A stretch of 64,000 nucleotides of DNA from positions 3,040,001 through 3,104,000 of the forward strand of contig OZ242010.1 in NCBI GenBank assembly GCA_965204745.1, written 5' to 3'. Under the pieces are notes generated by a model. That model ran no database searches. It was given only the letters and a program-made list of their open reading frames with translations, and was not told the origin of the DNA. Source of the stretch: Candidatus Latescibacterota bacterium (GTDB taxonomy: Bacteria > Latescibacterota > UBA2968). Numbering within the stretch: position 1 is the first letter of the stretch; every line of letters starts with the position of its first letter. The translations under genes and the position numbers were made by a program. This document shows positions 24,891-60,992 of this stretch, in pieces.

Positions 24891-25018
24891 CGAGTCGCGT
24901 CTTTAGAGACATCGATCATACGGGAAATGAGGAACAGACATTCCGTACGGATCATGCGGTGCTTGTCTCAAGCGTTTAGCCCTAAAGCATTGTTGGTTGC
25001 CTCCGATGCCTTCGGCGA

Positions 25019-25050
25019 CCTACTTTTTTTCAACAGCAAAAAAAAGTAGG
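25019..25050. repeat. A/T-rich inverted repeat in the convergent intergenic region
   Basis: cctacttttttt caacagc aaaaaaaagtagg. Confidence 0.55.
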
Positions 25051-25379
25051 CAAAAAATGCCGCTCTCAAACGCCGAGGGGCTTGCACAGCGCAAAGCGCT
25101 TTTGTAACAGCACGACATGCGTTGGCCTGCAAAGTGGGTTGCAACATGGATGTTGGTTGCGAGACGGACTTGCGCGCTGTGCGTGATGGCTTTAGCGGAT
25201 GGGCTTTTGCGATGGCATGGTTGCCATGGCTTCTCTGAATGACTGCGGAACGTCAAGGGGTTCGCTTGCTGTCAGTATATCGCATCGGGCCAACAGCAAT
25301 TTAATTTGGTATTGCAAAAGCGTCATGACGAATTTGCGTTCTGGTGAGCGTCGCGTAGTCAAAGCATCTCTTGCCTCGC

Positions 25380-38312: not shown

Positions 38313-38426
38313 CAGCCTGATGGCAACAGTTCATGCACGTCGCAACCGCGCTATTAACCCTAAAAATGCCCGAGTTCACTGCGAACCCGGGCTTGTGTTT
38401 TGGGCAGTCTATGGAGGCGCACCGCG

Positions 38427-38606
38427 TCAGATATCTCGCCGTACTGGAGGAGCCAAAATTGTTCTGGCACTTTTATTTTGTTTTTGTTTGGCATCTTTCA
38501 GGATGCGATCAATGTCAAAATCCATGGCCTTCGCCAGAGCAACCTTGATCCGTCGCGTTTCTCGGATAACCTCGTCTGTGGTTTGTTCTTTTGTCATCTG
38601 TCTCAT
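38427..38606 (-). CDS. Small putative antitoxin of the kind found after PIN genes
   Basis: DEVIRETRRIKVALAKAMDFDIDRIL pattern, directly after a PIN fragment. Confidence 0.55.
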   Translation of the reverse strand: MRQMTKEQTTDEVIRETRRIKVALAKAMDFDIDRILKDAKQKQNKSARTILAPPVRRDI

Positions 38607-38611
38607 AGCAG

Positions 38612-38848
38612 TCAATCTCCAAATAATTCTTCAGGCGTACAGAGAACTGGCAATTCGCAACCGCAATTGACCACGATTGCCCTGAGTTCTTTCATGAGGG
38701 TTGCATTGGCAATATGTCGGCAATTCCAAGTCAATAGAATGTCGATATTGTGAACAGCAGATACGGCAATATGAACTGCATCACGGATTGCCCTCTGCGG
38801 AAGTAAGCCGGAATCCATGATGGCCTTCGCAATATCAAGGATCGCGCA
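38612..38848 (-). pseudogene. 5'-truncated PIN-domain (VapC-like) gene
   Basis: Only the C-terminal half remains: AILDIAKAI..DAVHIAVSAVHNIDILLTWNCRHIAN..CTPEEL; further upstream the frame is antisense of the PcfJ gene. Confidence 0.75.
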
Positions 38849-40390: not shown

Positions 40391-40400
40391 TACGCTTCCC

Positions 40401-40492
40401 CCGCTCCACCACTAACCCTGCCGGGTGCGTTCCCAACCCATCGCCGCTCCGCCATGGGCGTGCCCAACCCACCGCTAACCCCGCCGGGTGCG
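40401..40492. repeat. Mosaic C-rich direct repeats
   Basis: ccaccactaaccctgccgggtgcg (40406) and ccaccgctaaccccgccgggtgcg (40469). Confidence 0.6.
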
Positions 40493-40534
40493 ACCTATTA
40501 GAGCGGTTTCATATCTTCTCGCAGAGATGACCGT

Positions 40535-41041
40535 TTAGCCCAAATAAGCATGCGGTTCCTTGTCTGGTTCTCTGGCTTTTAGCTTTTCGTCCTTGGTCCA
40601 AATATGCACTCGCCATGCCGATTCCCGATAGGTGGTGGTGCGTTTTTTGAGTCTGTCGGCTTCGTCAATCAAGGTGCTGTCGCTTAAACCAATGCCTTCG
40701 ATAACATGGTTATCGACAAAACGCACTATCAGTTTTTTGAGGGCACTGAGTTCTTGGGAGGGGATAATCGTCCACGGTACTGCTTTGTCGAGGCTAGACA
40801 GGATGTCATTTCGCAATTTCTTGGCCAATGACCGCCGTGCATTGCCATTAGAGACACCAGCGATGTGGTTGGCTAGTTCGTAGATGGACGGCACAGTAAC
40901 GTACAGCCGTGCGCCCTGTTTGACTGCGTCTTTGAAGCGGCTTCTTATCTCATCAACTGCTTCTTGGGTGGAGTGACCCGGAACAGCGTACAGTTCCAGC
41001 AAGTAGCTCGTATCGATCACGTAAACCGGCTGTGCTTTCAT
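40535..41041 (-). CDS. PIN-domain protein coupled to an ABC-type ATPase
   Basis: VIDTSYLLEL, SIYELANH, GLSDSTL, IWTKDEKL (PIN acidic residues); ATGA overlap. Confidence 0.75.
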   Translation of the reverse strand: MKAQPVYVIDTSYLLELYAVPGHSTQEAVDEIRSRFKDAVKQGARLYVTVPSIYELANHIAGVSNGNARRSLAKKLRNDILSSLDKAVPWTIIPSQELSALKKLIVRFVDNHVIEGIGLSDSTLIDEADRLKKRTTTYRESAWRVHIWTKDEKLKAREPDKEPHAYLG

Positions 41042-42318
41042 GGCATGGCCTCAATCCACGCCAGCATCTTTTTTTGTCTCTGTTCCTCGAACTCTGGCGC
41101 GACATATTGTTCAAGGACGCGGCGCGACACGAGATCTCCCAACTGCCCGCGCTCGAGAAGTTCATCGGACCTCGGCACCTGCATCAACTCCACCAAATCA
41201 GCGGCTTCCTTTTCCTTGCTCCAAGTGCAGAGAACGACCCCCTCTATCTGTTCGGCAGTCAAATTGTTCATGGTCGCAGGATTATGCGTTGTGACGAGCA
41301 CGCGCAGGTTGCGGCGTTTGATGGCTTTCTCGATTGCGGAGGTCAAAACGCCGACTCGACTTGGATGCAGGCCATTGTCAAACTCTTCCACAATCACACG
41401 CGAACCTTCTTGGGCCGTCTCCAAAGCCGTCAAAATAGCGAGGGTTCGCAAAGTGCCATCCGACAATGATCGGGCATCCACAGTATAACCCGTTCTTTCG
41501 CGCAACCCGAAAATCACATCGTCGAGATCGGTGACTGTAAAGATGAATTTTTCGTACGGTTCGTCCGGAAGTTGACGGATTTGAGACAGTAGCCTAGCCA
41601 ACGATTTTCGCTCGGCTTCATCGCCAACGGAAAGCGCGTAAAGCACTGCCGACAGATTCGCCCCATCCCGCGAGAGAACGCTGTTGCCGATGCGCTCGTA
41701 GCTGTGCATCAATTTCGGATTGGGATCAAAGACAAACGAAGCCTGCAAGTGGTTCATGACGATCTGCACCAACCGCATGCACTCTTTGAAGTTCTGATTC
41801 TTCTGCGCGATTTCTCGATACTGCGACAGAACGGAACGCTCTGACGAAGCCGCTATTTGGGGTTTCCTGCCGCCGCGGGCAAAGTTGTCGTATTTCACCA
41901 CCAAGTCACGCGATGCTTCCCAAGGGTTCTTGGGCAATGTTTCGTAGATTATGCGGTCACCGAATTCCAACCGCTCACGAAGTATTTGAGGATGCGGTTC
42001 GGTGCAAATGTGTAGGACGTAGTTAACGGGCTTGAACGCTCTGTGGAGCCTTATGCGAGCCGTAAAATTTAACGCGAAGGGTTCCTCGCCCATTCGCCCA
42101 CAACCTTGAAGTCCACCGCGAATTTGGATGCCCGTCGCGGCGCGCCCCACGTCGGCAATCTCGTAGAGGGGTTGTCCGCGTGCGACAAAGGAGAGCAACT
42201 CGATTGCTTCAATGACGTTGGTCTTTCCCGATCCATTTGGCCCGATTAGAAGCGTGAACGGTCGCAACAGATCAATGCTGGCCGCGTTGAATCCTTTGAA
42301 GTCAATGAGGTTGTGCAT
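41038..42318 (-). CDS. AAA_21-type ABC ATPase (no membrane domain)
   Basis: FKGF, LIGPNGSGKTN, IRGG, DGANLS, LSDGTLR, IVEEFDNGLHP, VTTHNP. Confidence 0.9.
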   Translation of the reverse strand: MHNLIDFKGFNAASIDLLRPFTLLIGPNGSGKTNVIEAIELLSFVARGQPLYEIADVGRAATGIQIRGGLQGCGRMGEEPFALNFTARIRLHRAFKPVNYVLHICTEPHPQILRERLEFGDRIIYETLPKNPWEASRDLVVKYDNFARGGRKPQIAASSERSVLSQYREIAQKNQNFKECMRLVQIVMNHLQASFVFDPNPKLMHSYERIGNSVLSRDGANLSAVLYALSVGDEAERKSLARLLSQIRQLPDEPYEKFIFTVTDLDDVIFGLRERTGYTVDARSLSDGTLRTLAILTALETAQEGSRVIVEEFDNGLHPSRVGVLTSAIEKAIKRRNLRVLVTTHNPATMNNLTAEQIEGVVLCTWSKEKEAADLVELMQVPRSDELLERGQLGDLVSRRVLEQYVAPEFEEQRQKKMLAWIEAMP

Positions 42319-42409
42319 GGGATAGCCTTATTTTTTTAATGGCTGATGGCTGAAAATTGGCTTTCAATATATACAAATGCACAGCGCGGAACAACTGCCT
42401 TGACGCAAC

Positions 42410-42450
42410 AAAAAAGGCCGTAAGCGGGCAAACCCTCACGACCTTTCTTT
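42410..42450 (-). terminator. Rho-independent terminator after the hsd-NDT operon
   Basis: Minus strand aaggtcgtgag..cttacggcctt hairpin followed by a T run. Confidence 0.6.
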
Positions 42451-42542
42451 TTCGGACTTCCAATTTTACCTGAAGAACACGGACATGCCCACGGTTACAA
42501 AATGGCGCGTGCTTTTTGACCTTTGATCGAAAATGCGAGCAT

Positions 42543-43475
42543 TTACTCCTGACTAAATAAATTCCGAGGCCCCATGCCCATAAGGGCCTCGATTCTGTTT
42601 TTCAATCGTTTAGCGAGTTCAGTTGGTTCGGTCCAGTCAATGCAGTTGTATTGGCGAATGTCGAAATGAAGGTTCTCGATGTCGTCCTTACGACAGGTCC
42701 AAATAACCTGTATGTTGAGCCCGAACGCAAATCCCGCCTCAAAATACACGCCTCCACGATGTCCGGTAAAATCGGCGACCAAGAATTTTGAACGCCGAAT
42801 CTCGGCAATGATCCGATCGTCGATCTTTCCAGCATGCTCTACCTCATCAATCCGCACAGGATCGTATCCCGCCTTTAGAATCCCCGCTTCAAATCCCTTT
42901 TCGTAGGCGTCTTGCATTGAATCGTCAAACCACATGGCGACAAACGCCTGAGTAGAAGCCGCTTCGCGTGCGTGCAATTCTTCGTACCTCTTATGGCCCT
43001 GAGACGTGATTCTATAGCTATGGCCTATAAGGTTTGCATCTAAGCAACCCTGATCGACAAGTAACCTGGCCAAGTAGTCTAAATCACCCAGATTTTTTGA
43101 ATAGGAAATCGCTTGAAGATCTAGACTGAGGGGGTTGATGATAACTTCATTGAGCGATTTATGATGGCGCACAGAGTAGATCAAAATGCGGTCTGCCCGT
43201 TCCAAAGGGCTTGGAATCGGCATTGTAGCAATGCGTTTGATCTGATCGCCATCTATTTCTGGAATCTCATTGAGCATGTTCCGCTCGCGAATCCAGGCGG
43301 CCAGCTTGACTTCGATTTCTGGCAAAGGTTCAGAATCGACCGGTTCAAGCCAAAATCGCCCGCAATGTGGACAGTCCTGGCGAATGCGGACGAGGCGCCC
43401 GTAGTCTTCAACTGGTTTACCTATTGTCTTCGCTTGCTCATTGCCACAGATTACACAAGGATGGTTTTCAGCCAT
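42543..43475 (-). CDS. Zn-ribbon + wHTH-like + nucleoside 2-deoxyribosyltransferase-like protein
   Basis: CVIC..CPHCG; YRITSQGH wing; QAFVAMWF..IRRSKFLVADFTGHRGGVYFEAGFAFGL..HFDIRQY; AAGGAG RBS. Confidence 0.75.
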   Translation of the reverse strand: MAENHPCVICGNEQAKTIGKPVEDYGRLVRIRQDCPHCGRFWLEPVDSEPLPEIEVKLAAWIRERNMLNEIPEIDGDQIKRIATMPIPSPLERADRILIYSVRHHKSLNEVIINPLSLDLQAISYSKNLGDLDYLARLLVDQGCLDANLIGHSYRITSQGHKRYEELHAREAASTQAFVAMWFDDSMQDAYEKGFEAGILKAGYDPVRIDEVEHAGKIDDRIIAEIRRSKFLVADFTGHRGGVYFEAGFAFGLNIQVIWTCRKDDIENLHFDIRQYNCIDWTEPTELAKRLKNRIEALMGMGPRNLFSQE

Positions 43476-43485
43476 CGTATTCTCC

Positions 43486-45798
43486 TTATTTGATTGGTTC
43501 AAGGCGGTTCACATCCGGCTCCAGTGCCGCATGCAACAGGGCGTCGAGCAGGCGTTGCTTGGTATCGTTTCCGGCAACGAGACTCGCCTCCAGCCGATCA
43601 CACAATGCCATCAGTTCATCCACTTTGGCGACGATGCGGTGTTGTTCGGCGAGGGGCGGGCAGGGGATCGAGATATTTGAAATTGATTCTCGATTTAGGG
43701 TTGCGCCCTTTATTGCTCCCTTCGTGTCACCTTGTCGCGCAAAAAAGGGCAATATCTTAAAGAGATAAGGATCGAGCTCCGAAACATACGGACGTATAGA
43801 GATGATTGCTTCGTTGTGGTAAGCGGGAATGCCAAGCCGCGCTATTTTTCCGATAGTCAACTTGAAACTCATAATCATCGTGCCGACTTGTTTGGGGGCG
43901 GAACGAAAAATTTGTTTGGCTGCTTTCTCGCTGACCGTCTCTTTTGTCGTCATGAGTGTCTCGCCATCGCCCATGTCTGAGATACTGATCCATGGGTAAT
44001 CGCCTGTGTTCCAAAAAGACAACTCATTTCGAGTTGGAGTACGACCCGCCGAGAAGTCCGCGATGTTTCCAAACTTTACCCAACGCCACTTCGCAGGAAT
44101 GCCAAAAGGACGCTCATCAATCTCGATAGCGGGAAGTACTTTGCCCTTCCGAATCTCTCCTCTCTTCACCAACCGCGCTTTTTCTTTTTTAATCCGCTTC
44201 AACAGTTCCGCCGCCGGTTCGTCATTTGGGTCTTGTAGCACGAGTTTGCCGCGCACTGCGAGGTCGAGGATGAAGTGGCGCAGGCGTGGGATGGCGTCAG
44301 GCGCGTCTGCGACTTGTGTAAAGTGGGCGAGCAGTTGATCGGTGTTCATCGCAGCAGTGCCCAAAACTGTCTTTAACTGATCGCGCAAGGTCGCGGTTTC
44401 CGATTCGGTCGCGGTCAGATAGGTCAGAAGTTCCTCGGGATCGCCGGGGGCGTCTTCGGCTGTGTGTGGGTTCTTGATGTCGAGGTTGTAGCCACGCGCC
44501 TTGACTTCTTCCGCGGTGACTTGCCAAGCGCGTTCTGTTTTCCTGCGGCCCGTGCGTTCTGGCCCGCCCCACCAATCCATGCAGTCTCGTAGGTGTTCTA
44601 TTCGGATCGGCTTGGTCTTGGAATAGGATTTCTGGCCTTTGGGCACCAGATGTTCGTAAAACCATATCCGCTCGGTTGGCGCGCCCTTTTCAAAGAACAG
44701 CAAGTTGGTGCCGATAGAGGCATAGGGCTGGAACACGGAATTGGGCAAGCGGACAATGGTGTGGAGATTGCATTCCGCCATCAGGTGTTCCTTGAGCCGG
44801 GTTTTGACGCCTTCGCCAAACAGCGAGCCATCGGGCAGAACCACTGCGGCGCGACCGCCCGGCTTCAAGACGCGGATGATGAGGGCGAGGAACAAGTCCG
44901 CGGTTTCCTTTGTGCGGAAATGCTGTGGAAAATTGCTCTCGATCCCATCTTCTTCCTTGCCCCCAAAGGGCGGATTGGTGAGCACGATATCTACCCGATC
45001 CCGCTTTTCCCAACTGATATAGGGCCGCGCCAAGGTGTTGTCGTGGGTGACAAAGCTCGGGTTTTTAATTTTGTGCAACAGCATGTTGGTAACGCAAAGC
45101 ATGTGCGGCAGTTGTTTCTTGTCCACGGCGCGGAGCGAGGTCTGTATCCTTTCCACGTCTTCGGGCCGTTTGACGTACCGGGCGCGCATGTGGCGCAATG
45201 AACACGTCAGAAAGCCGCCCGTGCCGCAGGCCGGGTCAAACAGGATTTCCCCCGGCTTGGGATCGATGCGGTCGACCATGAAGGCGGTGACGGCGCGTGG
45301 GGTGTAGTATTCACCGGCATTGCCCGCGGATTGCAGGTCGTTCAAGATCTGTTCGTAGATGTCGCCAAAATGCTGGATTTCGGCCAGGTCGTTGAAGTCG
45401 ATCTCGTTGATCTTGTTCACCACTTGGCGCATCAACTGCCCGGACTTCATGTAGTTGTAGGCGTCCTCAAACACACTTCGCACCACGCGGCGGCGGTCGT
45501 CGGATGGGCCGGTCGCGTGGAGATTTTTCAGTGCCGGGAACAAATCGTCGTCGATAAAGGCGATCAGTTTTTCGCCGGTGATGCCCTCGGCATCGCCCGC
45601 CCATGTGCGCCACTGAAACCGCTTTGGGATTGGGGATGTGTAGTTTTCCTCGGTCAGTTCTAATTCTTTGTCCTGATCGTCGATGATTTTGAGAAAGAAC
45701 ATCCAGCACAGTTGACCGATGCGCTGCGCGTCGCCATCGACGCCGGTATCTCGGCGCATGATGTCTTGGATGGATTTGACCAACGTGTTGACGGACAT
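43486..45798 (-). CDS. hsdM: Type I RM methylase HsdM fused in frame to a half (single-TRD) HsdS
   Basis: GEYYTPR, DPACGTGGF, NPPF; then MNTDQLL..ILDLAVRGKLV.QDPNDEPA..PFGIPAKWRW..PPLAEQHRIVAKVDELMALCD with no intervening stop. Confidence 0.9.
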   Translation of the reverse strand: MSVNTLVKSIQDIMRRDTGVDGDAQRIGQLCWMFFLKIIDDQDKELELTEENYTSPIPKRFQWRTWAGDAEGITGEKLIAFIDDDLFPALKNLHATGPSDDRRRVVRSVFEDAYNYMKSGQLMRQVVNKINEIDFNDLAEIQHFGDIYEQILNDLQSAGNAGEYYTPRAVTAFMVDRIDPKPGEILFDPACGTGGFLTCSLRHMRARYVKRPEDVERIQTSLRAVDKKQLPHMLCVTNMLLHKIKNPSFVTHDNTLARPYISWEKRDRVDIVLTNPPFGGKEEDGIESNFPQHFRTKETADLFLALIIRVLKPGGRAAVVLPDGSLFGEGVKTRLKEHLMAECNLHTIVRLPNSVFQPYASIGTNLLFFEKGAPTERIWFYEHLVPKGQKSYSKTKPIRIEHLRDCMDWWGGPERTGRRKTERAWQVTAEEVKARGYNLDIKNPHTAEDAPGDPEELLTYLTATESETATLRDQLKTVLGTAAMNTDQLLAHFTQVADAPDAIPRLRHFILDLAVRGKLVLQDPNDEPAAELLKRIKKEKARLVKRGEIRKGKVLPAIEIDERPFGIPAKWRWVKFGNIADFSAGRTPTRNELSFWNTGDYPWISISDMGDGETLMTTKETVSEKAAKQIFRSAPKQVGTMIMSFKLTIGKIARLGIPAYHNEAIISIRPYVSELDPYLFKILPFFARQGDTKGAIKGATLNRESISNISIPCPPLAEQHRIVAKVDELMALCDRLEASLVAGNDTKQRLLDALLHAALEPDVNRLEPIK

Positions 45799-45799
45799 G

Positions 45800-48178
45800 T
45801 TAAGCGACCTCCAGGTAAAGTGCGGATTGCAAATCGCGGGCGGCTTCAAGAAATTCGTCCCTGCCGCCAAAGGCATTGATCAACTGCACGGGGGTGCCGA
45901 GTTCGGTGAACGGCGGAATTTGTAGCACCTTGGTATCGAAATCGATCACGCCCTCGTCGGCGTACTTGTCCAAGAGGGCGTTGAGCACGGCACGGGCCTG
46001 CTTCCCGTACTTGGTGAACGCATCTCGCTTTCGGACATTCGCGGCGCGCTCGCGGCGGGTCAGGGGCGTGGCGTCAAAGGCGAGATGGCAAATGAGGTCA
46101 AAGGGATCGAGATCCTCGCCCTCGGCGAGCATGTCGAGTGCCAGTCCTCTATCTCTCAATTCTTCAACAATCGCTCGCTTGCGCTCTGCCGCGTTCCATC
46201 GCCCGAGAAAGTCGTCGAGGCTGGCGAAGTGCTTTTTGAGTTCCTTTTTGGTAAAGTCGCGCAAGGACTCGGCGGTCAATCTGCCATACTTGTCGAGGTA
46301 TTCCACGCGCTCGGCAATGATTTCTACCCCGACCCCATCCACGTACACTTTTTGCGCGCCGCTGAGATGTGGTCGTTGATCGGGGAATATGGGATCCGTG
46401 CCGTCCTCTGGATACGGCTCATCGTCGGGCGGAATCATGGGATCGCCATCGCCCGGCTCGTAAATCTGCACGGGTTCGCCATCGAAATCCGGTTCCGCGA
46501 AATGGCTCGTCGCGCCCCGGAAATCCATCAAAGTAAAGTAAAATTTGTGCGTGTCCTCGTGTACGCGCGTGCCCCGCCCGACGATCTGTTTGAACTCGGT
46601 CATGGAACCGACGATGCGGTCGAGCACAATCAAGCGGCAGGTTTGGACATCGACGCCGGTGGAAAGCAGGCGCGAGGTCGTGACCAATACGGGATATGTG
46701 GATTCCGGGTCCATAAAGTTGTCGAGTTGGGCCTGACCTTCGGGGTCGTTGCCGGTGATACGCATGACATAGTGGTGGTTCTGATCTACCAAATCGGCGT
46801 TCTCATTGACGAGGGCTTGTCTCATGCGGCCGGCGTGTTCTTGGTCGACGCAAAAGATGATCGTTTTCTGGAACCGGTCGCCGCTTTCCTTCAGAAATTG
46901 CGTCACCTTGCGGGCGACCAACTCGGTGCGTTCGTCCAACACCAGGGTGTGGTCAAAGTCCCTGGCGTTGTAGATGCGGTCTTCGATCTCATTGCCGTAT
47001 CGGTCGCGTTGGTCTCTTTCCGGGCGATAGCCTTCCACATCCCGGTCAATATGAACTTTGATGACTTTGTAGGGCGCGAGAAAGCCATCTTGGATGCCTT
47101 GTTTCAAGGAGTAGGAATAGATCGGATCCCCAAAGTAATGGATGTTGGAGTCGTACTTGGTTTCCTTGGGTGTGGCGGTTAGGCCGATCTGCGTGGCGGC
47201 AGAGAAATACTCCAGAATTTCCCGCCAAGCCGAATCCTCGGCAACACTGCCCCGATGGCACTCGTCAACCACGATCAAATCAAAAAAGGTGGGCGATAAC
47301 TCGCGGAAAACTTTCTGGCGCTCCTCCGGGCCGGTGATCGCTTGATAGAGGCCGAGATAGATCTCATAAGCCGTATCGACGCGGCTATTTTTTGTGCTGC
47401 CCTCCCCGCGTTCAATGGTGCCTGAACGGGTCGAGAGTTTGGTCATTGCCGGGCCGAAGGGTCGGAAATCGTTGCTTTGGGTCTGATCGATCAGCACATT
47501 GCGGTCAGCCAAAAACAAGACGCGCTTTTTGATGCCCGCCTTCCACAGCCGATAGATGATTTGAAAGGCGGTGTAGGTTTTGCCGGTGCCCGTTGCCATC
47601 ACGAGCAGAATGCGGTCATGTCCGCGGGCAATGGCTTCGGTGACAGCGTTGATGGCCTTGACTTGGTAATAGCGCGGCTCTTTGCCCCTGGGATCGTGGA
47701 AGTAGTCTTGGAGGACGATTTTCTCGGCTTCGGGCGTCCAGCCCTTCCAAGTTCGATAGCGCGTCCAGAGCGCATCGGGCGATGGGAACGCGTCGAGACT
47801 GAGGATCGTTTCTCGTTTTGAGCCGAGGCCGGTTCGGTCATGAAACACAAAGCCATCGCCATTGGAGGAAAACACAAAGGGAATGTCCAGGGCAGCGGCG
47901 TAGTTGAGGGCTTGTTGCATGCCGTCACCGATGGCGAGGGTGTTCTTCTTGGCTTCGATGAGCGCGATGTGGAGGTTGGGTTTGTTTTTGTAATGCAGGA
48001 TGTAGTCGGCCCGTTTGCTCTCGCCTCGACAGACCAACTTGCCGCGCACGTTGATCTGCCCCTTGGCGAATGGGTACTCCTCGCGGATTTGCGACATGAG
48101 GTCCCACCCGGCACGGCACAAGGCCGGCGTGATGACCTTGGTGCAAATGTCGCGCTCGCTCAACCGCTTTTTGTCCAT
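45800..48178 (-). CDS. hsdR: Type I restriction subunit HsdR (EcoAI/EcoEI-like)
   Basis: ADYIL..IEAK, PRYYQ, MATGTGKT, DECHRG, GLTATP, LSTGVD, QIVGRGTR, EcoEI-R-like C-terminus. Confidence 0.93.
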   Translation of the reverse strand: MDKKRLSERDICTKVITPALCRAGWDLMSQIREEYPFAKGQINVRGKLVCRGESKRADYILHYKNKPNLHIALIEAKKNTLAIGDGMQQALNYAAALDIPFVFSSNGDGFVFHDRTGLGSKRETILSLDAFPSPDALWTRYRTWKGWTPEAEKIVLQDYFHDPRGKEPRYYQVKAINAVTEAIARGHDRILLVMATGTGKTYTAFQIIYRLWKAGIKKRVLFLADRNVLIDQTQSNDFRPFGPAMTKLSTRSGTIERGEGSTKNSRVDTAYEIYLGLYQAITGPEERQKVFRELSPTFFDLIVVDECHRGSVAEDSAWREILEYFSAATQIGLTATPKETKYDSNIHYFGDPIYSYSLKQGIQDGFLAPYKVIKVHIDRDVEGYRPERDQRDRYGNEIEDRIYNARDFDHTLVLDERTELVARKVTQFLKESGDRFQKTIIFCVDQEHAGRMRQALVNENADLVDQNHHYVMRITGNDPEGQAQLDNFMDPESTYPVLVTTSRLLSTGVDVQTCRLIVLDRIVGSMTEFKQIVGRGTRVHEDTHKFYFTLMDFRGATSHFAEPDFDGEPVQIYEPGDGDPMIPPDDEPYPEDGTDPIFPDQRPHLSGAQKVYVDGVGVEIIAERVEYLDKYGRLTAESLRDFTKKELKKHFASLDDFLGRWNAAERKRAIVEELRDRGLALDMLAEGEDLDPFDLICHLAFDATPLTRRERAANVRKRDAFTKYGKQARAVLNALLDKYADEGVIDFDTKVLQIPPFTELGTPVQLINAFGGRDEFLEAARDLQSALYLEVA

Positions 48179-48189
48179 AGCGCGTCCTT

Positions 48190-49158
48190 TCATACATACC
48201 GAATATTCTTCCCCAGCGTTGCCACCATTTCGCCGGTCGCCACCATGGGGCGGGCGTTTTCCGACCAGAAGATCGATTCCTCTGGGGCGCGCAGGGTTTC
48301 GAGCACATTGCCGAATGGATCCGTGATGTCTGCGATGGGGTCGCCTTTTTGCAAGTGGTCGTAGCGTTGTGCGTGAAATTCTATGAAGCCGCCCCGATTG
48401 GACAGCAGGGTTAAAAATCCATCCACCACCACTTGTCTTTTGGGAATGTGCGGTTCGCCCGGGATGACGCCGTAGTACTTCAGCGCGTTCTCCACGCCCC
48501 GAATGCCCTTTTGAATGCTCGCCCTGTCCCAGCCTGGGCAACCGCCGAGTTCCGGATCGATGGTCGGGATGCCTTCATCCGGGGCCGCGCGCGCCAGTTG
48601 CCCTTCGGGGCCGCGCTGGTCGAGGATGTACCCGATGCCAAATACCTGTGCCATTTCCATGCAGGCGCGATGAATGCGTTTGCGCCGGTCCACGCGCACG
48701 CGCACTTCGTCGATCATGGGGCGTTGCCCGCCTTGGTGCAAGTCGATGCAGTAATCGGCCTGCCGCACGGCATTGTGGAACAACCGATGGGCGATGCGCT
48801 CGCTCGAGGTGCCGTCTGTGCGCCCGGGGAAACACCGATTCATCTTTTTTTTGTCGATGGGGCTGAATGCCCGATGCGCGTGAAAGGCGTGGAAATTGGC
48901 GATCAGCACCGCGATGATCTGCCCGCTCATCGCGGTTGGATCCAGCCGCTTCAACACCTGCCGAATCACGGCCACGCCATTTAACTCGTCCCCGTCGCTG
49001 ATGGCCTGCAAGTAAAAGGTCGGGCCTTCCCGAACCCCATTGATCAGGGAGACCGGCACGCGCGCAGGCGATCCGTCCTGCATCTCGGCCACTTTCAAAT
49101 AGCCATCCACGCGCTGCCCCGGCTCGGCCCTGAGATGTTCAACGCGAAGCATGTTCAT
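48190..49158 (-). CDS. Succinylglutamate desuccinylase/aspartoacylase (M14)-family protein
   Basis: SDGDELNG, MNRCFPG, IDLHQG, PELGG, C-terminal biotinyl-like domain; AGGAG RBS. Confidence 0.85.
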   Translation of the reverse strand: MNMLRVEHLRAEPGQRVDGYLKVAEMQDGSPARVPVSLINGVREGPTFYLQAISDGDELNGVAVIRQVLKRLDPTAMSGQIIAVLIANFHAFHAHRAFSPIDKKKMNRCFPGRTDGTSSERIAHRLFHNAVRQADYCIDLHQGGQRPMIDEVRVRVDRRKRIHRACMEMAQVFGIGYILDQRGPEGQLARAAPDEGIPTIDPELGGCPGWDRASIQKGIRGVENALKYYGVIPGEPHIPKRQVVVDGFLTLLSNRGGFIEFHAQRYDHLQKGDPIADITDPFGNVLETLRAPEESIFWSENARPMVATGEMVATLGKNIRYV

Positions 49159-52225: not shown

Positions 52226-52269
52226 GATTTATGTCTCGGAGCGACCACTGACCACCTGTGAGGAATGCC

Positions 52270-53460
52270 ATGCAAAACGACTTCCACCCATCCACATTCG
52301 CGCCGCCGCTCGTGTGGGCGCGTCTCATTTTGGCGAATCGCGGTGTGCCCAAGCCGTATTGGGGCAAACTCGCGCGGATTTTGATCGCCACCGCCATGGC
52401 CACGCCCTTGCGCCTTGCGGAATGGTTGCTGTATTCCCGGCAAATCGCCAACACAAAGATCGAGCAAGACCCTTTGTTCATCTTGGGGTTCGGGCGTTCC
52501 GGCACGACGCACTTGCAGAATCTGCTCGCGCAAGACCCGACGTACGGATACCTGACGACCTTCCAGATGGTCATGCCGACCTTTTCGCTGGTCGGGCGGG
52601 GGTGGTTGAAACGCCGGATGGAAAAAGACATGGGCGAGCAGACCCGTCGGATGGATAACGTGAAAGTCACTCTAGACACGCCGCAAGAGGAAGATGTAGC
52701 ACTCGCCAATTTGAGCGACATGTCCTTTGTCCACCAACTTTCCTTTCCGCAGCAGGGCCGACGGTTGTTAGAAAAGTACGTGCTGATGGGCGCGGACCCC
52801 GATGGCGAGCGTCTGACGGCAAGCGAACTGCGCCGGTGGGAGCGGACGTACCTGCGCGTCTTGCGGAAAATGACGCTCCATGCCGATGGGCGACAACTCT
52901 TGTTGCGAAATACCATCAATATTGGCCGGGTCGATCACCTGTCGCGCCTCTTCCCCGACGCGAAGTTCATTCACATCATTCGCAATCCATACGACGTGTA
53001 TCCGTCGCTCATGAAGTTGTACCGCACCATGCTTCCCCTGTATCAGCTAGACGACTACAAGTGGCCGGAAGTGGAGGAGTTCCTCGTCGAGATTTATCCG
53101 CGCTTGATGCAGAAGTACTTGGCGGACCGCGCTCTGATTCCGGCCGGCCACCTGGCGGAAGTGCGCTTTGAGGATCTCGAGCGCGACCCCCTCGGCGAAC
53201 TGGCGCGGCTCTACGCCGAGCTCGACCTGCCCGACTGGGAAAACGCCCAGACGCATATCGCCGCGTACCTCGAGACCATCGCCGGTTATCGCAAGAACGC
53301 GTTCCGAATCGATCCAGCGATTATTGAGCGGGTAGATGAGAAATGGCGGTTCGCCGTAGAAGAGTGGAACTATCGGCCGCCGAGCGGCGATTCCCAAAGA
53401 GCTGCTCACCGGCGTTCTGCCCGGTCACAACGCAATTTTCACCTGAGAGCTAGGGCTTGA
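52270..53460 (+). CDS. Sulfotransferase (Stf3-like), paralog 1
   Basis: GFGRSGTTHL 5'-PSB loop, R.MDN, PQEE, HIIRNPY..YPS, VRFEDL; 22 aa C-terminal extension. Confidence 0.88.
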   Translation: MQNDFHPSTFAPPLVWARLILANRGVPKPYWGKLARILIATAMATPLRLAEWLLYSRQIANTKIEQDPLFILGFGRSGTTHLQNLLAQDPTYGYLTTFQMVMPTFSLVGRGWLKRRMEKDMGEQTRRMDNVKVTLDTPQEEDVALANLSDMSFVHQLSFPQQGRRLLEKYVLMGADPDGERLTASELRRWERTYLRVLRKMTLHADGRQLLLRNTINIGRVDHLSRLFPDAKFIHIIRNPYDVYPSLMKLYRTMLPLYQLDDYKWPEVEEFLVEIYPRLMQKYLADRALIPAGHLAEVRFEDLERDPLGELARLYAELDLPDWENAQTHIAAYLETIAGYRKNAFRIDPAIIERVDEKWRFAVEEWNYRPPSGDSQRAAHRRSARSQRNFHLRARA

Positions 53461-53536
53461 TTTATCTCTGCAAACCCTCTATATACGCAAGGTGCTGTTC
53501 CGCTGTTCTTCTGTCGCTTCCAAGCGAAGAATGCCC

Positions 53537-54673
53537 ATGAAAGACGACTTCCACCCATCCACGTTCGCGCCGCCGCTCGTGTGGGCGCGTCTCATTCTGG
53601 CGAACGGAGGTGTGCCCAAGCCGTATTGGGGCAGACTCGCGCGGATTCTGATCGCCACCACCCTGGCCACGCCGTTGCGCCTTGCGGAATGGCTATTGTA
53701 TGCCCGGCAAATCGCCAACACAAAAATCGAGCACGCGCCCTTGTTCGTCGTTGGGTTCGGGCGCTCCGGCACGACGCACTTGCAAAATCTGCTCGCGCAA
53801 GACCCCACGTACGGATACGTATCTACCTATCAGATTATGACATCGACCTTTTCGCTGGTCGGGCAGGGATGGTTGAAACGCCTGATGGAAAAGGGTCTGA
53901 CGGAGATGGGCGCGCAAACTCGGCCAATGGACAACGTGAAAGTCGATCTGGATTCGCCGCAAGAAGAAGATGCGGCACTCGCTAGCTCCAGCATTCAGTC
54001 CGCTATCCACCACCTCACTTTTCCGCAACAGCGTTGGCGGTTGTATGAAAAGTACGTGCTGATGGGCGCGGCCCCCGAGGGCGAGCGTCTGACGGCAAGG
54101 GAACTGCGCCGGTGGGAGCGGGCGTACCTGCGCGTCTTGCAGAAGACGACGATCCACAACGGCGGCAAGCGACTCCTATTAAAAAGTGTGGTCAACATCG
54201 GCCGGGTCGATCACCTGCTGCGCCTCTTTCCCGACGCCAAGTTCATTCACATCATTCGCAATCCATACAACTTGTACCCGTCGCTCCTGCATCTGTACCG
54301 CGAGTTGCTGCACTTGTATCAACTCGATGACTACGACTGGTCGGAAATAGAGTCGTTTGTCACCGAGACCTATCCGCGCTTGATGCAGAAGTACTTGGCG
54401 GACCGCACTCTGATTCCGGCCGGCCACCTTGCGGAAGTGCGCTTCGAGGATCTCGAGCGCGACCCCCTCGGCGAACTAGCGCGGCTCTACGCCGAGCTCG
54501 ACCTGCCCGACTGGGAAAACGCCGAGCCGCATATCGCCGCGTACCTCGAGACCATCGCCGATTATCGCAAGAACGAATTTCGGATCGAGCAATCGATCAT
54601 CGAGCGGGTAGGGGAGAAATGGCGGTTCGCCGTAGAAGAGTGGAACTATCGACCACCGAGCGGCGATTCCTAA
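53537..54673 (+). CDS. Sulfotransferase (Stf3-like), paralog 2
   Basis: Same motifs as paralog 1. Confidence 0.88.
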   Translation: MKDDFHPSTFAPPLVWARLILANGGVPKPYWGRLARILIATTLATPLRLAEWLLYARQIANTKIEHAPLFVVGFGRSGTTHLQNLLAQDPTYGYVSTYQIMTSTFSLVGQGWLKRLMEKGLTEMGAQTRPMDNVKVDLDSPQEEDAALASSSIQSAIHHLTFPQQRWRLYEKYVLMGAAPEGERLTARELRRWERAYLRVLQKTTIHNGGKRLLLKSVVNIGRVDHLLRLFPDAKFIHIIRNPYNLYPSLLHLYRELLHLYQLDDYDWSEIESFVTETYPRLMQKYLADRTLIPAGHLAEVRFEDLERDPLGELARLYAELDLPDWENAEPHIAAYLETIADYRKNEFRIEQSIIERVGEKWRFAVEEWNYRPPSGDS

Positions 54674-54691
54674 ACCGACCAGAGGAGTGCA

Positions 54692-54730
54692 ATGGCCCTG
54701 CGGTTTGCCTAAGCGTTGCTCTGCGGATCA
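54692..54730 (+). pseudogene. Relic of the GPP34-P450 gene start
   Basis: gcaatggccctgcggtttgcctaa matches gcaatggccctgcgatttgccgaa at 56027, with GAA changed to TAA. Confidence 0.7.
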
Positions 54731-54874
54731 GCCCTCGCGTTTGTTCCCGAGTCGCATCTGAGCGTGCTCATCGAAAAGGACTGAAATCGCCCCCGGCGTT
54801 CTGCGCGGTCACCATGCGACCTCCACATGAGATTTATGTATCAGCGCGACCACTGATCACCTGTGAGGAATGCC

Positions 54875-56011
54875 ATGCAAAACGACTTCCACCCATTCAC
54901 GTTCGCGCCGCCGCTCGTGTGGGCGCGTCTCGTTCTGGCGAATCGCGGTGTGCCCAAGCCGTATTGGGGCAAACTCGCGCGGATTTTGATCGCCACCGCC
55001 ATGGCCACGCCCTTGCGCCTTGCGGAATGGCTATTGTATGCCCGACAAATCGCCAACACAAAAATCGAGCACGCCCCCTTGTTCATCTTGGGTTATGCGC
55101 GTTCCGGCACGACGCACTTGCAGAATCTGCTCGCGCAGGATCACGCGTACGGATGCGTATCTACTTATCAGGCTGTGACGGCGACCTTTTCGCTGGTCGG
55201 GCAGGGACGGTTGAAACGCCTGATGGAAAAGGGCATGGAAGACATGGGCGAGCAAACCCGTCCGATGGACAACATGAAAGTCGGTCTGGACGCGCCGCAG
55301 GAAGAAGACGTGGCACTCGCCAACTCGAGTATTATGTCCGTTATCCACCAACTTTCCTTTCCGAAACAGTGTTGGCGGTTGTTTGAAAAGTACTCGCTGA
55401 TGGGCGCGGACCCCGATGGCGAGCGTTTGACGGCAAGCGAATTGCGCCGGTGGGAGCGGGCGTACTTGCGCGTCTTGCAGAAGACGACGATCCACACCGG
55501 CGGCCGGCAACTCCTCCTAAAAAATGTGGCCAACCTCGGCCGGGTTGACCACCTGTTGCGCCTCTTCCCCGACGCCAAGTTCATCTACATCGTTCGCAAT
55601 CCATACGACGTGTACCCATCGCTCATGAAGTTGCACCACTCCCTGCTTCCCCTGTATCAGCTAGACGACTACAACTGGTCGGAAGTGGAGGAGTTCCTCG
55701 TCGAGAGTTATGCGTGCGTGATGCAGAAGTACTTGGCGGACCGCGCTCTGATTCCGGCCGGCCACCTGGCGGAAGTGCGCTTTGAGGATCTCGAGCGCGA
55801 CCCCCTCGGCGAACTGGCGCGGCTCTACGCCGAGCTCGACCTGCCCGACTGGGAAAACGCCCAGACGCAGATCGCCGCGTACCTCGAGACCATCGCCGAT
55901 TATCGCAAGAACGAGTTCCAACTCGATCAATCGATTATTGACCGAGTAGAGGAGAAATGGCGGTTCGTCGTAGAAGAGTGGAACTATCAACGGCCGAGCG
56001 GCGACGCCTAA
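54875..56011 (+). CDS. Sulfotransferase (Stf3-like), paralog 3
   Basis: GYARSGTTHL and the same motifs; ~100 bp leader nearly identical to that of paralog 1. Confidence 0.88.
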   Translation: MQNDFHPFTFAPPLVWARLVLANRGVPKPYWGKLARILIATAMATPLRLAEWLLYARQIANTKIEHAPLFILGYARSGTTHLQNLLAQDHAYGCVSTYQAVTATFSLVGQGRLKRLMEKGMEDMGEQTRPMDNMKVGLDAPQEEDVALANSSIMSVIHQLSFPKQCWRLFEKYSLMGADPDGERLTASELRRWERAYLRVLQKTTIHTGGRQLLLKNVANLGRVDHLLRLFPDAKFIYIVRNPYDVYPSLMKLHHSLLPLYQLDDYNWSEVEEFLVESYACVMQKYLADRALIPAGHLAEVRFEDLERDPLGELARLYAELDLPDWENAQTQIAAYLETIADYRKNEFQLDQSIIDRVEEKWRFVVEEWNYQRPSGDA

Positions 56012-56029
56012 ACCAACGGGAGGTTTGCA

Positions 56030-58012
56030 ATGGCCCTGCGATTTGCCGAAGAGTTACTGTTGCTGATTCTAAACGAGGATTACGGTGACCTTGCACCTGT
56101 TCCCGAGCCGCATCTGAACCACGCGCTCGCCGGGGCGGTGCTCATGGACTTGGCCCTCGAAAATCGGATCGACACGGACCCCGAAAAGTTGATTCTGGTC
56201 GATTCCACGCCGGTCAAAGACGATCTCCTGGACCCAGTGCTGGCCGACATCGCGCAGACCGCGGAAACGCACAACGCACAATACTGGGTGCGCCGCATCG
56301 CACAAACCGGCGAGCAAATTCGCAACCACACGCTCGCCCGCCTGCTGAAAGCCGGCATTCTGGACTCCGCGGAGGAAGGGGCCATCTCTTTGGCGCGTAG
56401 CGTGGCGCGCTCCCGTCGGTATCCGAACTATAGTATAGATGCCGAACAGGAAGTGCGGTTGCGGATCATGCGCGTTTTGTTCAGCGACGACATCCCCGAA
56501 CCGCGCGACATCGCGATCATCTGCTTGGCCGACGCCTGTGGCATGTTCGAGAAAATCCTGTCGAAAGAAGAGTTGCAGGAGGCGAGCGAGCGCATCGATA
56601 TCGTTTCGCGGCTGGATCTAATCGGGCGAGCCATCCCCGAGGCGGTGCGCGAATCCGCACAGGAGGCGACCGCTCCGGGCGCGGCGGTCGCGCCCAAGCA
56701 GATCCCCATGGTCAAGGGATTGCCCATAGTCGGCAGCGCGCTAAAAGCCGCCAAGGACATCCGCGCTTTTATGACACAGCAGTACCTAGAACTGGGGCCG
56801 GTGTTTGAAATCCGGCTCCTCAATCAGAAGATACTGGTTCTCGCCGGCCCGGAAGCCAATCAGTTCGTCAATCGGAAGGGGCGGTTCTTTTTCCGATCGT
56901 ACGAGCCTTATCGAGGGGTTAGCGATGGTCTCAACGCATCTCGGATGATCCTCAACATGGATGGGCCGGAACACGTGCGATACCGTCAGGCTTTCGCCTC
57001 TGCCTTCTCGCGGGCGCGGCTCCAGAAGCATCTCGACATCGCCAGCGACATCGCTCGGAGCCAAGTCAAGACCTGGCCGCTCAATCGACCTATCCAGCCG
57101 CTCCATGCATTACAACACATCATCGCGGATCAGATGGGCACGATTTTGTCCGGCACACCTGCGGGCGACTATTTGGAAGATTTGGTCTTCCTGCTCGAAA
57201 CGTTGCTGAAGACCACGCTGACGCAGCTTCCCGCGTTTTTGTTCAGGCGCAGATTTGAGAAAGCGCGCCAGCGGCTCAAAGGCCTGGCTCAAAAGACGCT
57301 GAAGGCCCATGAGCCCGGAGGGCCGTATTGCGACGCCGCCGACTTGATAAACGACATAATCGACCTCCACCGCTCGGACCCACAGTTCCTGCCCGAGACC
57401 GACATGATGGCTGTGGTGCTAGCCCCCTATCTGGTGGGGATTGAGACCGTCGGCACCACCTGCGCGTTCACGCTCTATGCCATCCTCAAGCACCCGGATT
57501 TGATGGCGCGGATGACGGCCGAGGCCGACGCCCTGTTCGCCCATGGGGAGTATCCGACCGCAGAAAGTCTGCGCCAGCTCGATGTCACCCACCGGGTAGT
57601 GTTGGAATCGCTGCGGATGTATCCGGCCGCGCCCACTGTTTTCCGTACCGTATCAAACTCATTCGATTTTGCTGGCTACCACATTCCCGCTGGCCGGATG
57701 CTGTTTGTAGCCACGACGGTGACGCATCGCTTGCCGGAGTATTTTCCCGATCCAGACCGCTTTGACATCGACCGCTACTCGCCCGAGCGCGCCGAGCACA
57801 GACAGCCCAACGCCTATGTGCCTTTCGGCGTGGGCACCCACCGGTGTTTGGGGGCCGGGTTTGCCGAGATGCAGACCTTGCTAACGCTGGCGGCGATCAT
57901 GCGCGAGGCCGAACTCGTCCTAGATCCGCCCGGCTATGAATTGAAAATGACGAATGTGCCGACGCCGCGCCCGGCGAAGAATTTCAAATTCAAGGTGGCG
58001 AGATGGCGGTGA
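56030..58012 (+). CDS. GPP34 (GOLPH3/Vps74-family) domain fused to cytochrome P450
   Basis: N-terminal LRFAEELLLL..LAGAVLMDLALENRID; P450 motifs VGIETV, ESLR, PDRF, PFGVGTHRCLG. Confidence 0.85.
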   Translation: MALRFAEELLLLILNEDYGDLAPVPEPHLNHALAGAVLMDLALENRIDTDPEKLILVDSTPVKDDLLDPVLADIAQTAETHNAQYWVRRIAQTGEQIRNHTLARLLKAGILDSAEEGAISLARSVARSRRYPNYSIDAEQEVRLRIMRVLFSDDIPEPRDIAIICLADACGMFEKILSKEELQEASERIDIVSRLDLIGRAIPEAVRESAQEATAPGAAVAPKQIPMVKGLPIVGSALKAAKDIRAFMTQQYLELGPVFEIRLLNQKILVLAGPEANQFVNRKGRFFFRSYEPYRGVSDGLNASRMILNMDGPEHVRYRQAFASAFSRARLQKHLDIASDIARSQVKTWPLNRPIQPLHALQHIIADQMGTILSGTPAGDYLEDLVFLLETLLKTTLTQLPAFLFRRRFEKARQRLKGLAQKTLKAHEPGGPYCDAADLINDIIDLHRSDPQFLPETDMMAVVLAPYLVGIETVGTTCAFTLYAILKHPDLMARMTAEADALFAHGEYPTAESLRQLDVTHRVVLESLRMYPAAPTVFRTVSNSFDFAGYHIPAGRMLFVATTVTHRLPEYFPDPDRFDIDRYSPERAEHRQPNAYVPFGVGTHRCLGAGFAEMQTLLTLAAIMREAELVLDPPGYELKMTNVPTPRPAKNFKFKVARWR

Positions 58013-60158: not shown

Positions 60159-60992
60159 ATGTCGCAAGCCATTCTCAAGCCAGAAGAAACAAAACATCTC
60201 ACGCGGGCGCAAGTGGCGCAGTTTGTGGAGAACGGGTTTGTCGTGGTTCCGGGATTGATCGATCCGGACCGCGTCAATGCGGGGCTGAAGGAGTTGAAAG
60301 ACAAAACCGGGATCGTGCCCGATGATGCGAAGACGTGGCCCTCGGATAAGGCGGGTATGCACGTCGGACAAGAGGGCATTGCGTTTGATCGCACCGCGTG
60401 CATCTCGCCGCGCATGGAAGCCGTGGTGCGCGAACTGGCCGGGGCCGCTGTGACCTGCGAGCGCGGGTTGGGGTACATGTTGCGATTTCCGCAACCGGGG
60501 CCCAAGCAATTTGAACCGGGCGGGGCGCATATTGACGGCACGCGCCAAGGGAATGGCCTCACGATGTACCCGACCCATTTTCACCTCTTGGCCATGGCCT
60601 ATCTGACGGATACAGAGGCGTGCGACGGGGCGTTCACCGTTTGGCCGGGCAGCCCGCGGCAGGTGTTTTCATGGGCGTATTGCAATGGCGTCGATTTGGG
60701 CGAGAAGTGGCGGACAACGGGCAGCACGGGCGCGCCGGATATTCCGCTCAACGATCCCATGCCGGTCGTCGCACGCGCCGGCGACGTGGCGATTTGCCAC
60801 TACTTGATGGTGCATGCCAGTTCCGCCAACCGCGGCGACCATGTGCGCGTCGGGCTTCACGGGTGGCTAAAGGCCGTACCCGATCACCGCTATGTGCCCA
60901 AAGCCGGCCCCCCGCAACGCGATTGGACCCCGTTGGACTGGGTTTTGAGAACGGACGACTTAACTGGAGAAAGGAGATCTTTGGGATACTGA
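60159..60992 (+). CDS. Phytanoyl-CoA dioxygenase (PhyH)-family Fe/2OG oxygenase
   Basis: LTRAQVAQFVENGFVVV, HID, YLTD..GAFTVWPGS, AGDV..H..VH..N..R. Confidence 0.82.
   Translation: MSQAILKPEETKHLTRAQVAQFVENGFVVVPGLIDPDRVNAGLKELKDKTGIVPDDAKTWPSDKAGMHVGQEGIAFDRTACISPRMEAVVRELAGAAVTCERGLGYMLRFPQPGPKQFEPGGAHIDGTRQGNGLTMYPTHFHLLAMAYLTDTEACDGAFTVWPGSPRQVFSWAYCNGVDLGEKWRTTGSTGAPDIPLNDPMPVVARAGDVAICHYLMVHASSANRGDHVRVGLHGWLKAVPDHRYVPKAGPPQRDWTPLDWVLRTDDLTGERRSLGY

Follow-up and report, generated by a model that had tools for sequence, protein, structure and literature searches.

Three sulfotransferase paralogs coupled to a GPP34-cytochrome P450 fusion in a Candidatus Latescibacterota genome: a candidate unit for hydroxylation and sulfation of a lipophilic substrate

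A gene cassette was analysed in a 64,000-nucleotide stretch of a Candidatus Latescibacterota genome (GenBank assembly GCA_965204745.1, contig OZ242010.1, positions 3,040,001 to 3,104,000; hereafter the window). Four co-oriented plus-strand genes (window 52270-58012; 5.75 kb; Table 1) encode three sulfotransferase (ST) paralogs, ST1, ST2 and ST3, and a fusion protein of a GPP34 domain and a cytochrome P450. With somewhat better than even confidence, the cassette is read as a hydroxylation and sulfation unit for a lipophilic substrate, probably steroid-like and taken from the host, in which the GPP34 domain would dock the P450 or present a lipid to it. Confidence in the substrate class is lower than in this overall reading. 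The fusion is already published, and the P450-ST logic has a mycobacterial precedent; a sulfotransferase-coupled clade of the GPP34_L architecture was not met in the literature searched.

Gene boundaries were taken from an open reading frame (ORF) list and translations. An earlier note on this DNA had described three co-oriented ST paralogs followed, after 18 bp, by a protein of 660 aa; ORF coordinates and Pfam matches agree with that description, and the fusion starts 18 nt past the ST3 stop codon. ST1 ends in a 22-aa extension without counterpart in ST2 and ST3. For ST2, a database protein of equal size (378 aa) lies on the window's own 5,482,115-base contig. A site scan returned no promoter-like sites and 10 terminator-like sites versus a shuffle mean of 8.8, i.e. 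no excess.

The hidden Markov model (HMM) scan suggested in the earlier note returned GPP34 and p450 on the single fusion chain. PF05719 matched with 124.3 bits (cut-off 29.1) over profile positions 2-200 of 201, which is the whole family HMM. AlphaFold2 models were obtained for the full-length fusion (pLDDT 88.7, pTM 0.84) and for the N-terminal domain alone (pLDDT 90.1). With the latter, Foldseek gave 8 matches at E <= 0.001, all of them GOLPH3 or Vps74 (TMq 0.60-0.74, probability 1.0; PDB 3kn1, 9qpq, 2zih; PMC2806290), and the likeness includes the beta hairpin; the next match had an E of 0.17. A single-sequence PDB search with the N-terminal domain was insignificant (E 0.21). A profile built from 36 bacterial GPP34 domains matched GOLPH3 (E 1.8e-10) and Vps74 (E 4.6e-10) over nearly their full length. 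The assignment of the N-terminal domain to GPP34, which the earlier note had left open to refutation by HMM or structure, thus withstood both, by the Pfam E-value (Table 1) and by the GOLPH3/Vps74 fold. Unlike GOLPH3 and Vps74, to which it is 18-21% identical, the domain is joined to an enzyme and occurs in a bacterium without a Golgi. A short GPP34_S copy is also carried by the genome.

In GOLPH3, the pocket for phosphatidylinositol 4-phosphate (PI4P) is formed by W81, R90, R171 and R174, and R174 contacts a sulfate ion in the crystal, according to the available text of PMC2806290. In the profile alignment these positions are occupied by V24, A34, E95 and R98 of the fusion, so that three of the four pocket residues are replaced. 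Across 48 fusions they are V or L, A, E or D, and R, the last in 36 of the 48. Judged by this alignment, the canonical PI4P site of GOLPH3 is not retained and the anion-contacting arginine is partly kept. With one of four pocket residues kept, membrane targeting of the PI4P type, which the earlier note had mentioned for eukaryotic GOLPH3/Vps74, is therefore doubtful. By hydropathy, neither ST nor fusion contains a hydrophobic stretch that would pass for a membrane span or a signal peptide; the highest 19-residue value of the fusion falls in the P450 I-helix.

P450 monooxygenases are marked by the motifs FxxGxxxCxG, ExxR and PERF-type and by an acid-alcohol pair in the I-helix. The C-terminal domain of the fusion matched PF00067 with 203.3 bits and contains ESLR (526-529), PDRF (575-578) and FGVGTHRCLG (599-608, haem-loop Cys606). 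The intact motifs claimed in the earlier note (ExxR, PDRF, FGxGxHxCxG) were all found, and C606, G602, H604, G608, E526, R529, P575 and F578 are invariant in 48 homologous fusion sequences. The I-helix reads G470-I-E472-T473. Its [DE]-T pair was present in 41/41 sequences of the kind found in the window's clade (clade A, see below) and missing in 7/7 of the other clade. Because the pair is kept in its clade, the window's P450 is taken to be an ordinary monooxygenase; the motif test places it in the O2-activating type.

The P450 model superposed best on the lanosterol-bound haem domain of the Methylococcus capsulatus CYP51-ferredoxin protein (PDB 7jj1, 7snm, 6mcw; TMt 0.84, identity 24-26%), followed by CYP184A1, CYP3A4/3A7 and CYP120A1. 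Identity to all of these, CYP51 included, is 21-26%. P450 family membership is assigned above 40% identity, and the window's P450 thus falls in none of these families. For CYP51, the phmmer match to the Methylococcus protein was strong over residues 396-636 only. Its I-helix carries H-T (…GHHTSS…) versus E472-T473 in the window, and together with the low identity this led to rejection of CYP51 as the identity of the window's P450. NCBIfam matches to pentalenene oxygenase and others were far below cut-off.

Each of the three STs matched Sulfotransfer_3 (PF13469) at E 4e-36 to 6e-35 over profile positions 1-215 of 216 (121.8-125.7 bits, cut-off 27). The sequence motifs of sulfotransferases that use 3'-phosphoadenosine 5'-phosphosulfate (PAPS) are named the 5'-phosphosulfate loop and the 3'-phosphate motif. 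In the GxxRSGTT loop, G77, R80, S81, G82, T83 and T84 are invariant in all three paralogs, as are R242, N243, P244, Y245 and, further on, P249 and S250. Conserved without exception among 37 ST homologs are G77, R80, G82, T84, R245, P247, Y251 and S253, numbered as in ST3. Of the solved chains, 2z6v (E 2e-8) and 2zq5 (E 5e-8) come nearest; both were deposited as 'putative uncharacterized protein', and we take them to be mycobacterial Stf-type enzymes. On these matches, the label 'Stf3-like' given in the earlier note is supported at the level of the Pfam family only. The NCBIfam match to NoeE was far below cut-off.

The description of the STs as diverged had to be dropped: they share 79-82% identity and form a young tandem array. 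Synonymous divergence (dS) was 0.25-0.35 among them and 0.05-0.17 versus the orthologs of L001, the closest related locus in the comparison. The corresponding dN/dS ratios were 0.35-0.40 and 0.20-0.28, and by these estimates purifying selection is shown to act on all three STs. Differences between the paralogs fall on 78 of 240 codons in the middle of the protein and on 24 of 130 codons at the two ends. That three STs make several sulfated products, as had been proposed, is plausible. Genome-wide, 7 Sulfotransfer_3 ORFs were found in 5.48 Mb, and the ST subfamily of the cassette has no other copy in its own genome; the adjacency of STs and fusion is therefore far beyond chance. A complex prediction for the GPP34 domain (alignment A3) with ST3 (alignment A4) scored 0.00 and has no bearing either way.

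For the linkage survey, tblastn searches for STs (7 queries) and for other recurrent neighbours were run on 20-kb stretches around 40 paralogs and 80 metagenome loci, with crude ORF calling. A FastTree phylogeny was built from 116 non-identical P450 domains and rooted with the genome's other P450; 18 duplicate or truncated sequences were left out. All of the 120 best database relatives of the fusion (49-100% identity) carry GPP34 and P450. Relatives of the window include metagenome-assembled genomes of Candidatus Latescibacterota, and L004 is recorded as Binatia. The names of two related metagenome contigs begin with JGIcombinedJ30088, a prefix that denotes an Aplysina aerophoba metagenome in PMC10070321. 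Within the phylum, fusion matches at E <= 1e-20 were present in 80 of 168 genomes, with several paralogous types and up to six per genome. Directly upstream of the fusion lie three STs in L001 (92%, 92% and 97% identical to ST1, ST2 and ST3), two each in L002 and L003 and one in L004.

The fusion family splits into two superclades, with node supports of 0.70 for the window's clade and 0.98 for the other. In the window's clade, which comprises 40 fusions and 14 P450s that stand alone, 25 of the fusions have an ST at a distance of up to 6 kb: the window's own, 22 of the 27 taken from genomes and 2 of the 12 taken from metagenomes. The stand-alone P450s have none (0/14). In the other clade, STs were found beside 0/62 fusions; 46 of the 62 adjoin a sterol methyltransferase, Rieske or amine-oxidase gene and 38 adjoin parts of an RND pump. 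The position of the ST varies: it is upstream of the fusion in the window, L001-L004 and L083, and downstream in L043-L049, L052-L058 and L060-L063. Two ST subfamilies are linked to fusions, and those of L059 and L111 differ from the rest. As an indirect sign, at least 19 of 119 other fusion clusters match an ST cluster in exact longest-contig size, 14 such contigs being <=20 kb. The neighbourhood survey called for in the earlier note thus upheld the link between fusion and STs. Since the linkage persists through changes in gene order across relatives, a shared hydroxylation and sulfation pathway is the best reading of the cassette.

Stand-alone P450s without GPP34 (L097, L103, L120 and 11 metagenome loci) nest in the window's fusion clade and are up to 54% identical to the window's P450 domain. 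Judged from the tree, either the GPP34 domain has apparently been lost several times or fusion occurred on more than one occasion.

For the substrate, gene neighbourhoods of relatives and the gene content of the genome were considered. Neighbours in the ST-free clade were an OEP-HlyD-AcrB pump, a Sterol_MT_C methyltransferase, a KshA_C Rieske protein and an FAD amine oxidase. In L064-L081, and in many loci of L098-L161, the operon order is OEP-HlyD-AcrB-fusion-sterol methyltransferase, with the KshA-type Rieske and FAD amine oxidase genes. A cyclase was absent from the checked genomes of this clade. In three loci of the window's clade, L082 (5114-13190), L084 and L086, an ecdysteroid-kinase-like (EcKL/APH) gene and an MFS transporter replace the ST, with sulfatases downstream; this is a hint that the conjugate there is phosphate and not sulfate. 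In L111, FGE-sulfatase genes lie beside an ST. Taken from gene content, the recurrent theme is that a steroid-like lipid is tailored, conjugated to an anionic group and transported.

In the window's genome (one contig, completeness 97.65%), no match to squalene/oxidosqualene cyclase (TIGR01787) was found. Cyclases over the family cut-off occur in 3 of 168 phylum genomes (8 at E <= 1e-5) and in 0/20 of the own genus, and none was seen in the 125 fusion loci examined. Sterol_MT_C was also without match in the genome, although this profile was silent in every control genome as well, and tblastn with the relatives' sterol methyltransferase, Rieske and amine-oxidase genes gave no match. Endogenous sterol or hopanoid synthesis was rejected on these grounds, and without a cyclase any sterol or hopanoid substrate would need an external source. 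An APS kinase gene is present, so PAPS is probably made in the cell. Two MqnA/MqnD-family genes (futalosine route) make menaquinone a likely or possible endogenous lipid; MenA was not found in the genome. The earlier note had suggested a quinone, sterol or hopanoid as substrate. Its sterol option gains indirect support from paralog contexts and P450 fold neighbours; sterols and hopanoids as endogenous products do not stand.

A squalene cyclase in one phylum genome (L164, G123:C39) is convergent to a P450 43% identical to the window's P450 domain, and the contig ends inside this P450. In the window's genome, a second, unfused ST-P450 pair occurs on the minus strand (G000:C1:5074187-5076788; L168:2188-4789). 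Its P450 shares 23% identity with the fusion P450 and has CYP184A1 and CYP97 as nearest matches; its ST, without the 70-aa N-terminal region, shares 23% identity with ST1. As this pair is unrelated to the cassette, P450-ST pairing is a recurrent design in the organism.

The proposed mechanism is as follows. The P450, canonical and O2-activating, with a CYP51/CYP3A/CYP120-like structural neighbourhood, would install one or more hydroxyls. The three PAPS-dependent ST paralogs would esterify hydroxyls with sulfate and might differ in the position or the congener that they use. GPP34 would serve as a non-catalytic module that either anchors the soluble P450 at a membrane or lipid surface or offers it an anionic lipid, and would do so without the PI4P pocket that eukaryotic GOLPH3 has. 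As substrate, a steroid-like or isoprenoid lipid from outside the cell, i.e. the host, would be most likely. That the P450 and the STs act on one substrate, the class of this substrate and the role of GPP34 are what we infer; the order, hydroxylation followed by sulfation, would follow the analogy with Cyp128/Stf3 only.

Several points weigh against this reading. No ST lies near 15 of the 40 clade-A fusions, and the metagenome sample contributes only 2/12. The counted genomes are kin and their counts are not independent. ST detection relied on 7 tblastn queries, so that other ST families may be missed, and support for the clade-A node is weak (0.70). The evidence for the substrate is by association: the paralogs in sterol contexts are 33-36% identical and the fold neighbours 21-26%, among which CYP184A1, which binds oleic acid, ranks level with CYP51. 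With cyclases absent from genome and genus, and sterol methyltransferase and Rieske genes absent from the genome, a sterol must be imported, and no conserved importer is linked to the cassette. A ferredoxin or reductase partner is likewise missing within it.

Among the alternatives, a generic phase I/phase II detoxification unit, or modification of non-steroid lipids, fares best but is considered unlikely. Host toxins, fatty acids or alkyl lipids would be hydroxylated by the P450 and made soluble or exportable by the STs. The top fold matches would suit this: the oleic-acid-bound CYP184A1, CYP3A4, which metabolises drugs, and fatty-acid hydroxylases of the BM3 type are among them. MFS and RND efflux pumps beside some relatives, a multi-copy ST array that fits a broader substrate range and the second, unrelated P450-ST pair point the same way. 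However, the family is tied to Sterol_MT_C, KshA-type Rieske and ecdysteroid-kinase-like genes, which are not typical xenobiotic genes, and the 18-nt coupling and cassette-wise inheritance suggest a dedicated pathway.

Less probable still is a system of the Cyp128/Stf3 kind directed at the polyprenyl quinone of the cell itself, in which the menaquinone tail would be hydroxylated and sulfated to sulfomenaquinone-type lipids. P450-ST adjacency defines the mycobacterial operon (PMC7404182), menaquinone is likely endogenous given the two MqnA/MqnD-family genes, no cyclised triterpenoid can be made in the genome, and a domain that docks to membranes would match a quinone that resides there. Against these stand the missing MenA, paralog contexts that point to sterols and the patchy occurrence of the cassette (3 other genomes of 168; 1/20 in the own genus), which is ill-suited to a universal respiratory lipid.

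It is very unlikely that GPP34_L acts here as a host-directed effector that binds host PI4P and blocks phagosome maturation, the STs being functionally unrelated. The fold is kept, the architecture is reported as confined to sponge symbionts and eukaryotic GPP34 binds PI4P (PMC11706023). Of the GOLPH3 pocket, though, only the position of R174 is preserved; the fusion lacks a hydrophobic N-terminal segment, is inherited together with metabolic genes 18 nt away, and conserves an intact monooxygenase site. Least probable is a hopanoid-type cassette, whose substrate would be a squalene-hopene cyclase product with the cyclase once or elsewhere coupled to P450 and ST: the G123 locus has a cyclase beside a related P450, but the window's genome, its genus, nearly all of the phylum and the fusion loci, as counted above, are without a cyclase.

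The reading as a hydroxylation and sulfation unit for a probably host-derived lipid also accords with the way the cassette is inherited. In blastn versus L001, DNA identity was 93-94% over 52260-58008, and the flanks were without similarity; the L001 genome (G138) is assigned to another family than the window's genome. Orthologs above 80% identity occur in 3 other genomes of the 168, and in 1 of 20 of the own genus. Identity confined to the cassette, together with this patchy occurrence, indicates horizontal sharing of the cassette between genomes, as far as sequence comparison can tell. The array itself carries a trace of its growth. A degraded remnant of the fusion start sits 18 nt past the ST2 stop codon and reads ATG GCC CTG CGG TTT GCC TAA, with an early stop; the blastn match to L001 and L002 stops at its end, 54761. 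The array therefore grew by tandem duplication of an ST together with the beginning of the fusion gene, and the remnant is best explained as the scar of the duplication that created ST3. As dS is higher between the paralogs than versus the L001 orthologs, the triplication is older than the split of the two cassette copies.

Table 1. Features of the cassette and of the upstream island (window positions).
Feature	Position	Strand	Remarks
ST1, Sulfotransfer_3 sulfotransferase	52270..53460	+	396 aa from ATG; alternative GTG start at 52258 possible
ST2, Sulfotransfer_3 paralog	53537..54673	+	378 aa
Fusion-gene 5'-end remnant, degraded	54692..54761	+	70 nt; alignment with 55978-56220
ST3, Sulfotransfer_3 paralog	54875..56011	+	378 aa; database protein P0124 (378 aa) 100% identical
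GPP34-P450 fusion protein, GPP34_L architecture	56030..58012	+	660 aa
GPP34 domain, fusion residues 6-208	56045..56653	+	Pfam PF05719, E 8.7e-36
Cytochrome P450 domain, fusion residues 229-640	56714..57949	+	Pfam PF00067, E 8.3e-60
C5 DNA methylase	35659-36783		in island
PcfJ-like protein	38849-40390		in island
AAA_21/AbiEii-type ATPase	41038-42318	-	in island
Fused HsdM-HsdS	43486-45876	-	in island
HsdR	45800-48541	-	in island

The genes that flank the cassette (SpoU methylase, DUF1080, aminotransferase, PhyH and TonB receptor) are not kept with it in L001, L003 and L004; DUF1080 alone recurs, in L002. They were rejected as pathway members for lack of conservation with the cassette in relatives. 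The PhyH (phytanoyl-CoA dioxygenase) family is greatly expanded in the genome, one copy lying at window 60159-60992; with 20 tblastn matches across the genome, the nearness of PhyH to the cassette is uninformative. A defence/mobile island lies just upstream of the cassette region (window 35659-48541). A dispersed repeat of about 300 bp (window 24940-25280) gave 92 blastn matches genome-wide, of which 25 listed matches, the query's own copy apart, are 85-94% identical. Four copies, at 1894, 5897, 8464 and 12067, flank and interrupt the L002 cassette. The repeat may be an element resembling a miniature inverted-repeat transposable element that helps to rearrange the cassette.

The two-domain architecture was described as GPP34_L (GPP34 plus cytochrome P450) in 656 proteins restricted to sponge symbionts, and occurred in 92.6% of 27 sponge-symbiont Latescibacterota genomes (Microbiome 2025;13:4, PMC11706023). 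According to the available text, GPP34_L was proposed to bind PI4P, as eukaryotic GPP34 does, and to interfere with phagocytosis. The window's fusion corresponds to it in architecture, length class and the combination of GPP34 and PF00067; it differs in that its gene stands in an ST cassette and the PI4P pocket is not conserved. The earlier note's remark that no characterised GPP34-P450 fusion was known is therefore superseded for the architecture, and stands for its biochemistry as far as the available text of that paper goes. In its main text, supplements not included, the word 'sulfotransferase' does not occur, and a literature search found no publication joining GPP34 with sulfotransferases in bacteria.

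In M. tuberculosis, menaquinone is sulfated by Stf3 after hydroxylation by Cyp128 (PMC7404182, citing Sogi 2016 and Holsclaw 2008). That operon and the window's cassette share an adjacent P450 and PAPS-type sulfotransferase, inherited together in the case of the window, and a proposed logic in which a membrane isoprenoid lipid is hydroxylated and then sulfated. The window differs by its three STs, by GPP34 on the P450 and by a P450 whose nearest solved structures are CYP51/CYP184/CYP120 at 24-26%. For sulfation of a host sterol, BT_0416 of Bacteroides thetaiotaomicron, which sulfates host cholesterol (PMC9417993), offers a comparison: both would be symbiont enzymes using PAPS as donor on a host-derived sterol. 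As far as that source describes it, BT_0416 adjoins PAPS-synthesis genes and, unlike the window's STs, has no P450 partner. PF13469 matches were obtained in the B. thetaiotaomicron control genome, although the match was not tied to BT_0416. Sterol clusters of sponge symbionts contain sdmA/sdmB and sterol methyltransferases (Brown et al. 2023, PMC10070321); neither 'P450' nor 'Rieske' occurs as a word in the available text. Paralogous GPP34-P450 fusions adjoin similar genes, a sterol methyltransferase and a Rieske oxygenase, whereas the window's genome lacks these two and a cyclase.

Sponges are a classic source of trisulfated sterols, e.g. halistanol sulfate (PMC8145587). An extension of the reading as a hydroxylation and sulfation unit, for which only a slim chance is seen, would make the cassette a symbiont route to polysulfated, halistanol-type sponge sterols. 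GPP34 would then capture the host sterol or its 3-sulfate at the membrane, with the retained R174-like anion contact serving the sulfate ester instead of PI4P, the P450 would add extra ring hydroxyls and each ST paralog would sulfate one position. If so, the GPP34_L proteins, which are a mark of sponge symbionts across a dozen phyla, would be lipid-tailoring enzymes, and a classic class of sponge natural products would be made by bacteria rather than by the sponge.

Across many phyla, most sponge-symbiont genomes are reported to carry GPP34-P450 fusions, for which host manipulation has so far been the only, speculative explanation. An ST-cassette clade with an intact monooxygenase site and no PI4P pocket would provide a concrete, testable metabolic hypothesis for GPP34_L. 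The window's cassette is a clear case of this arrangement: it has three STs, bears the scar of a duplication and is shared between genomes. As a compact four-gene unit it is suited to heterologous expression. The finding bears on who makes or remodels sulfated sponge sterols and on how symbionts handle host lipids.

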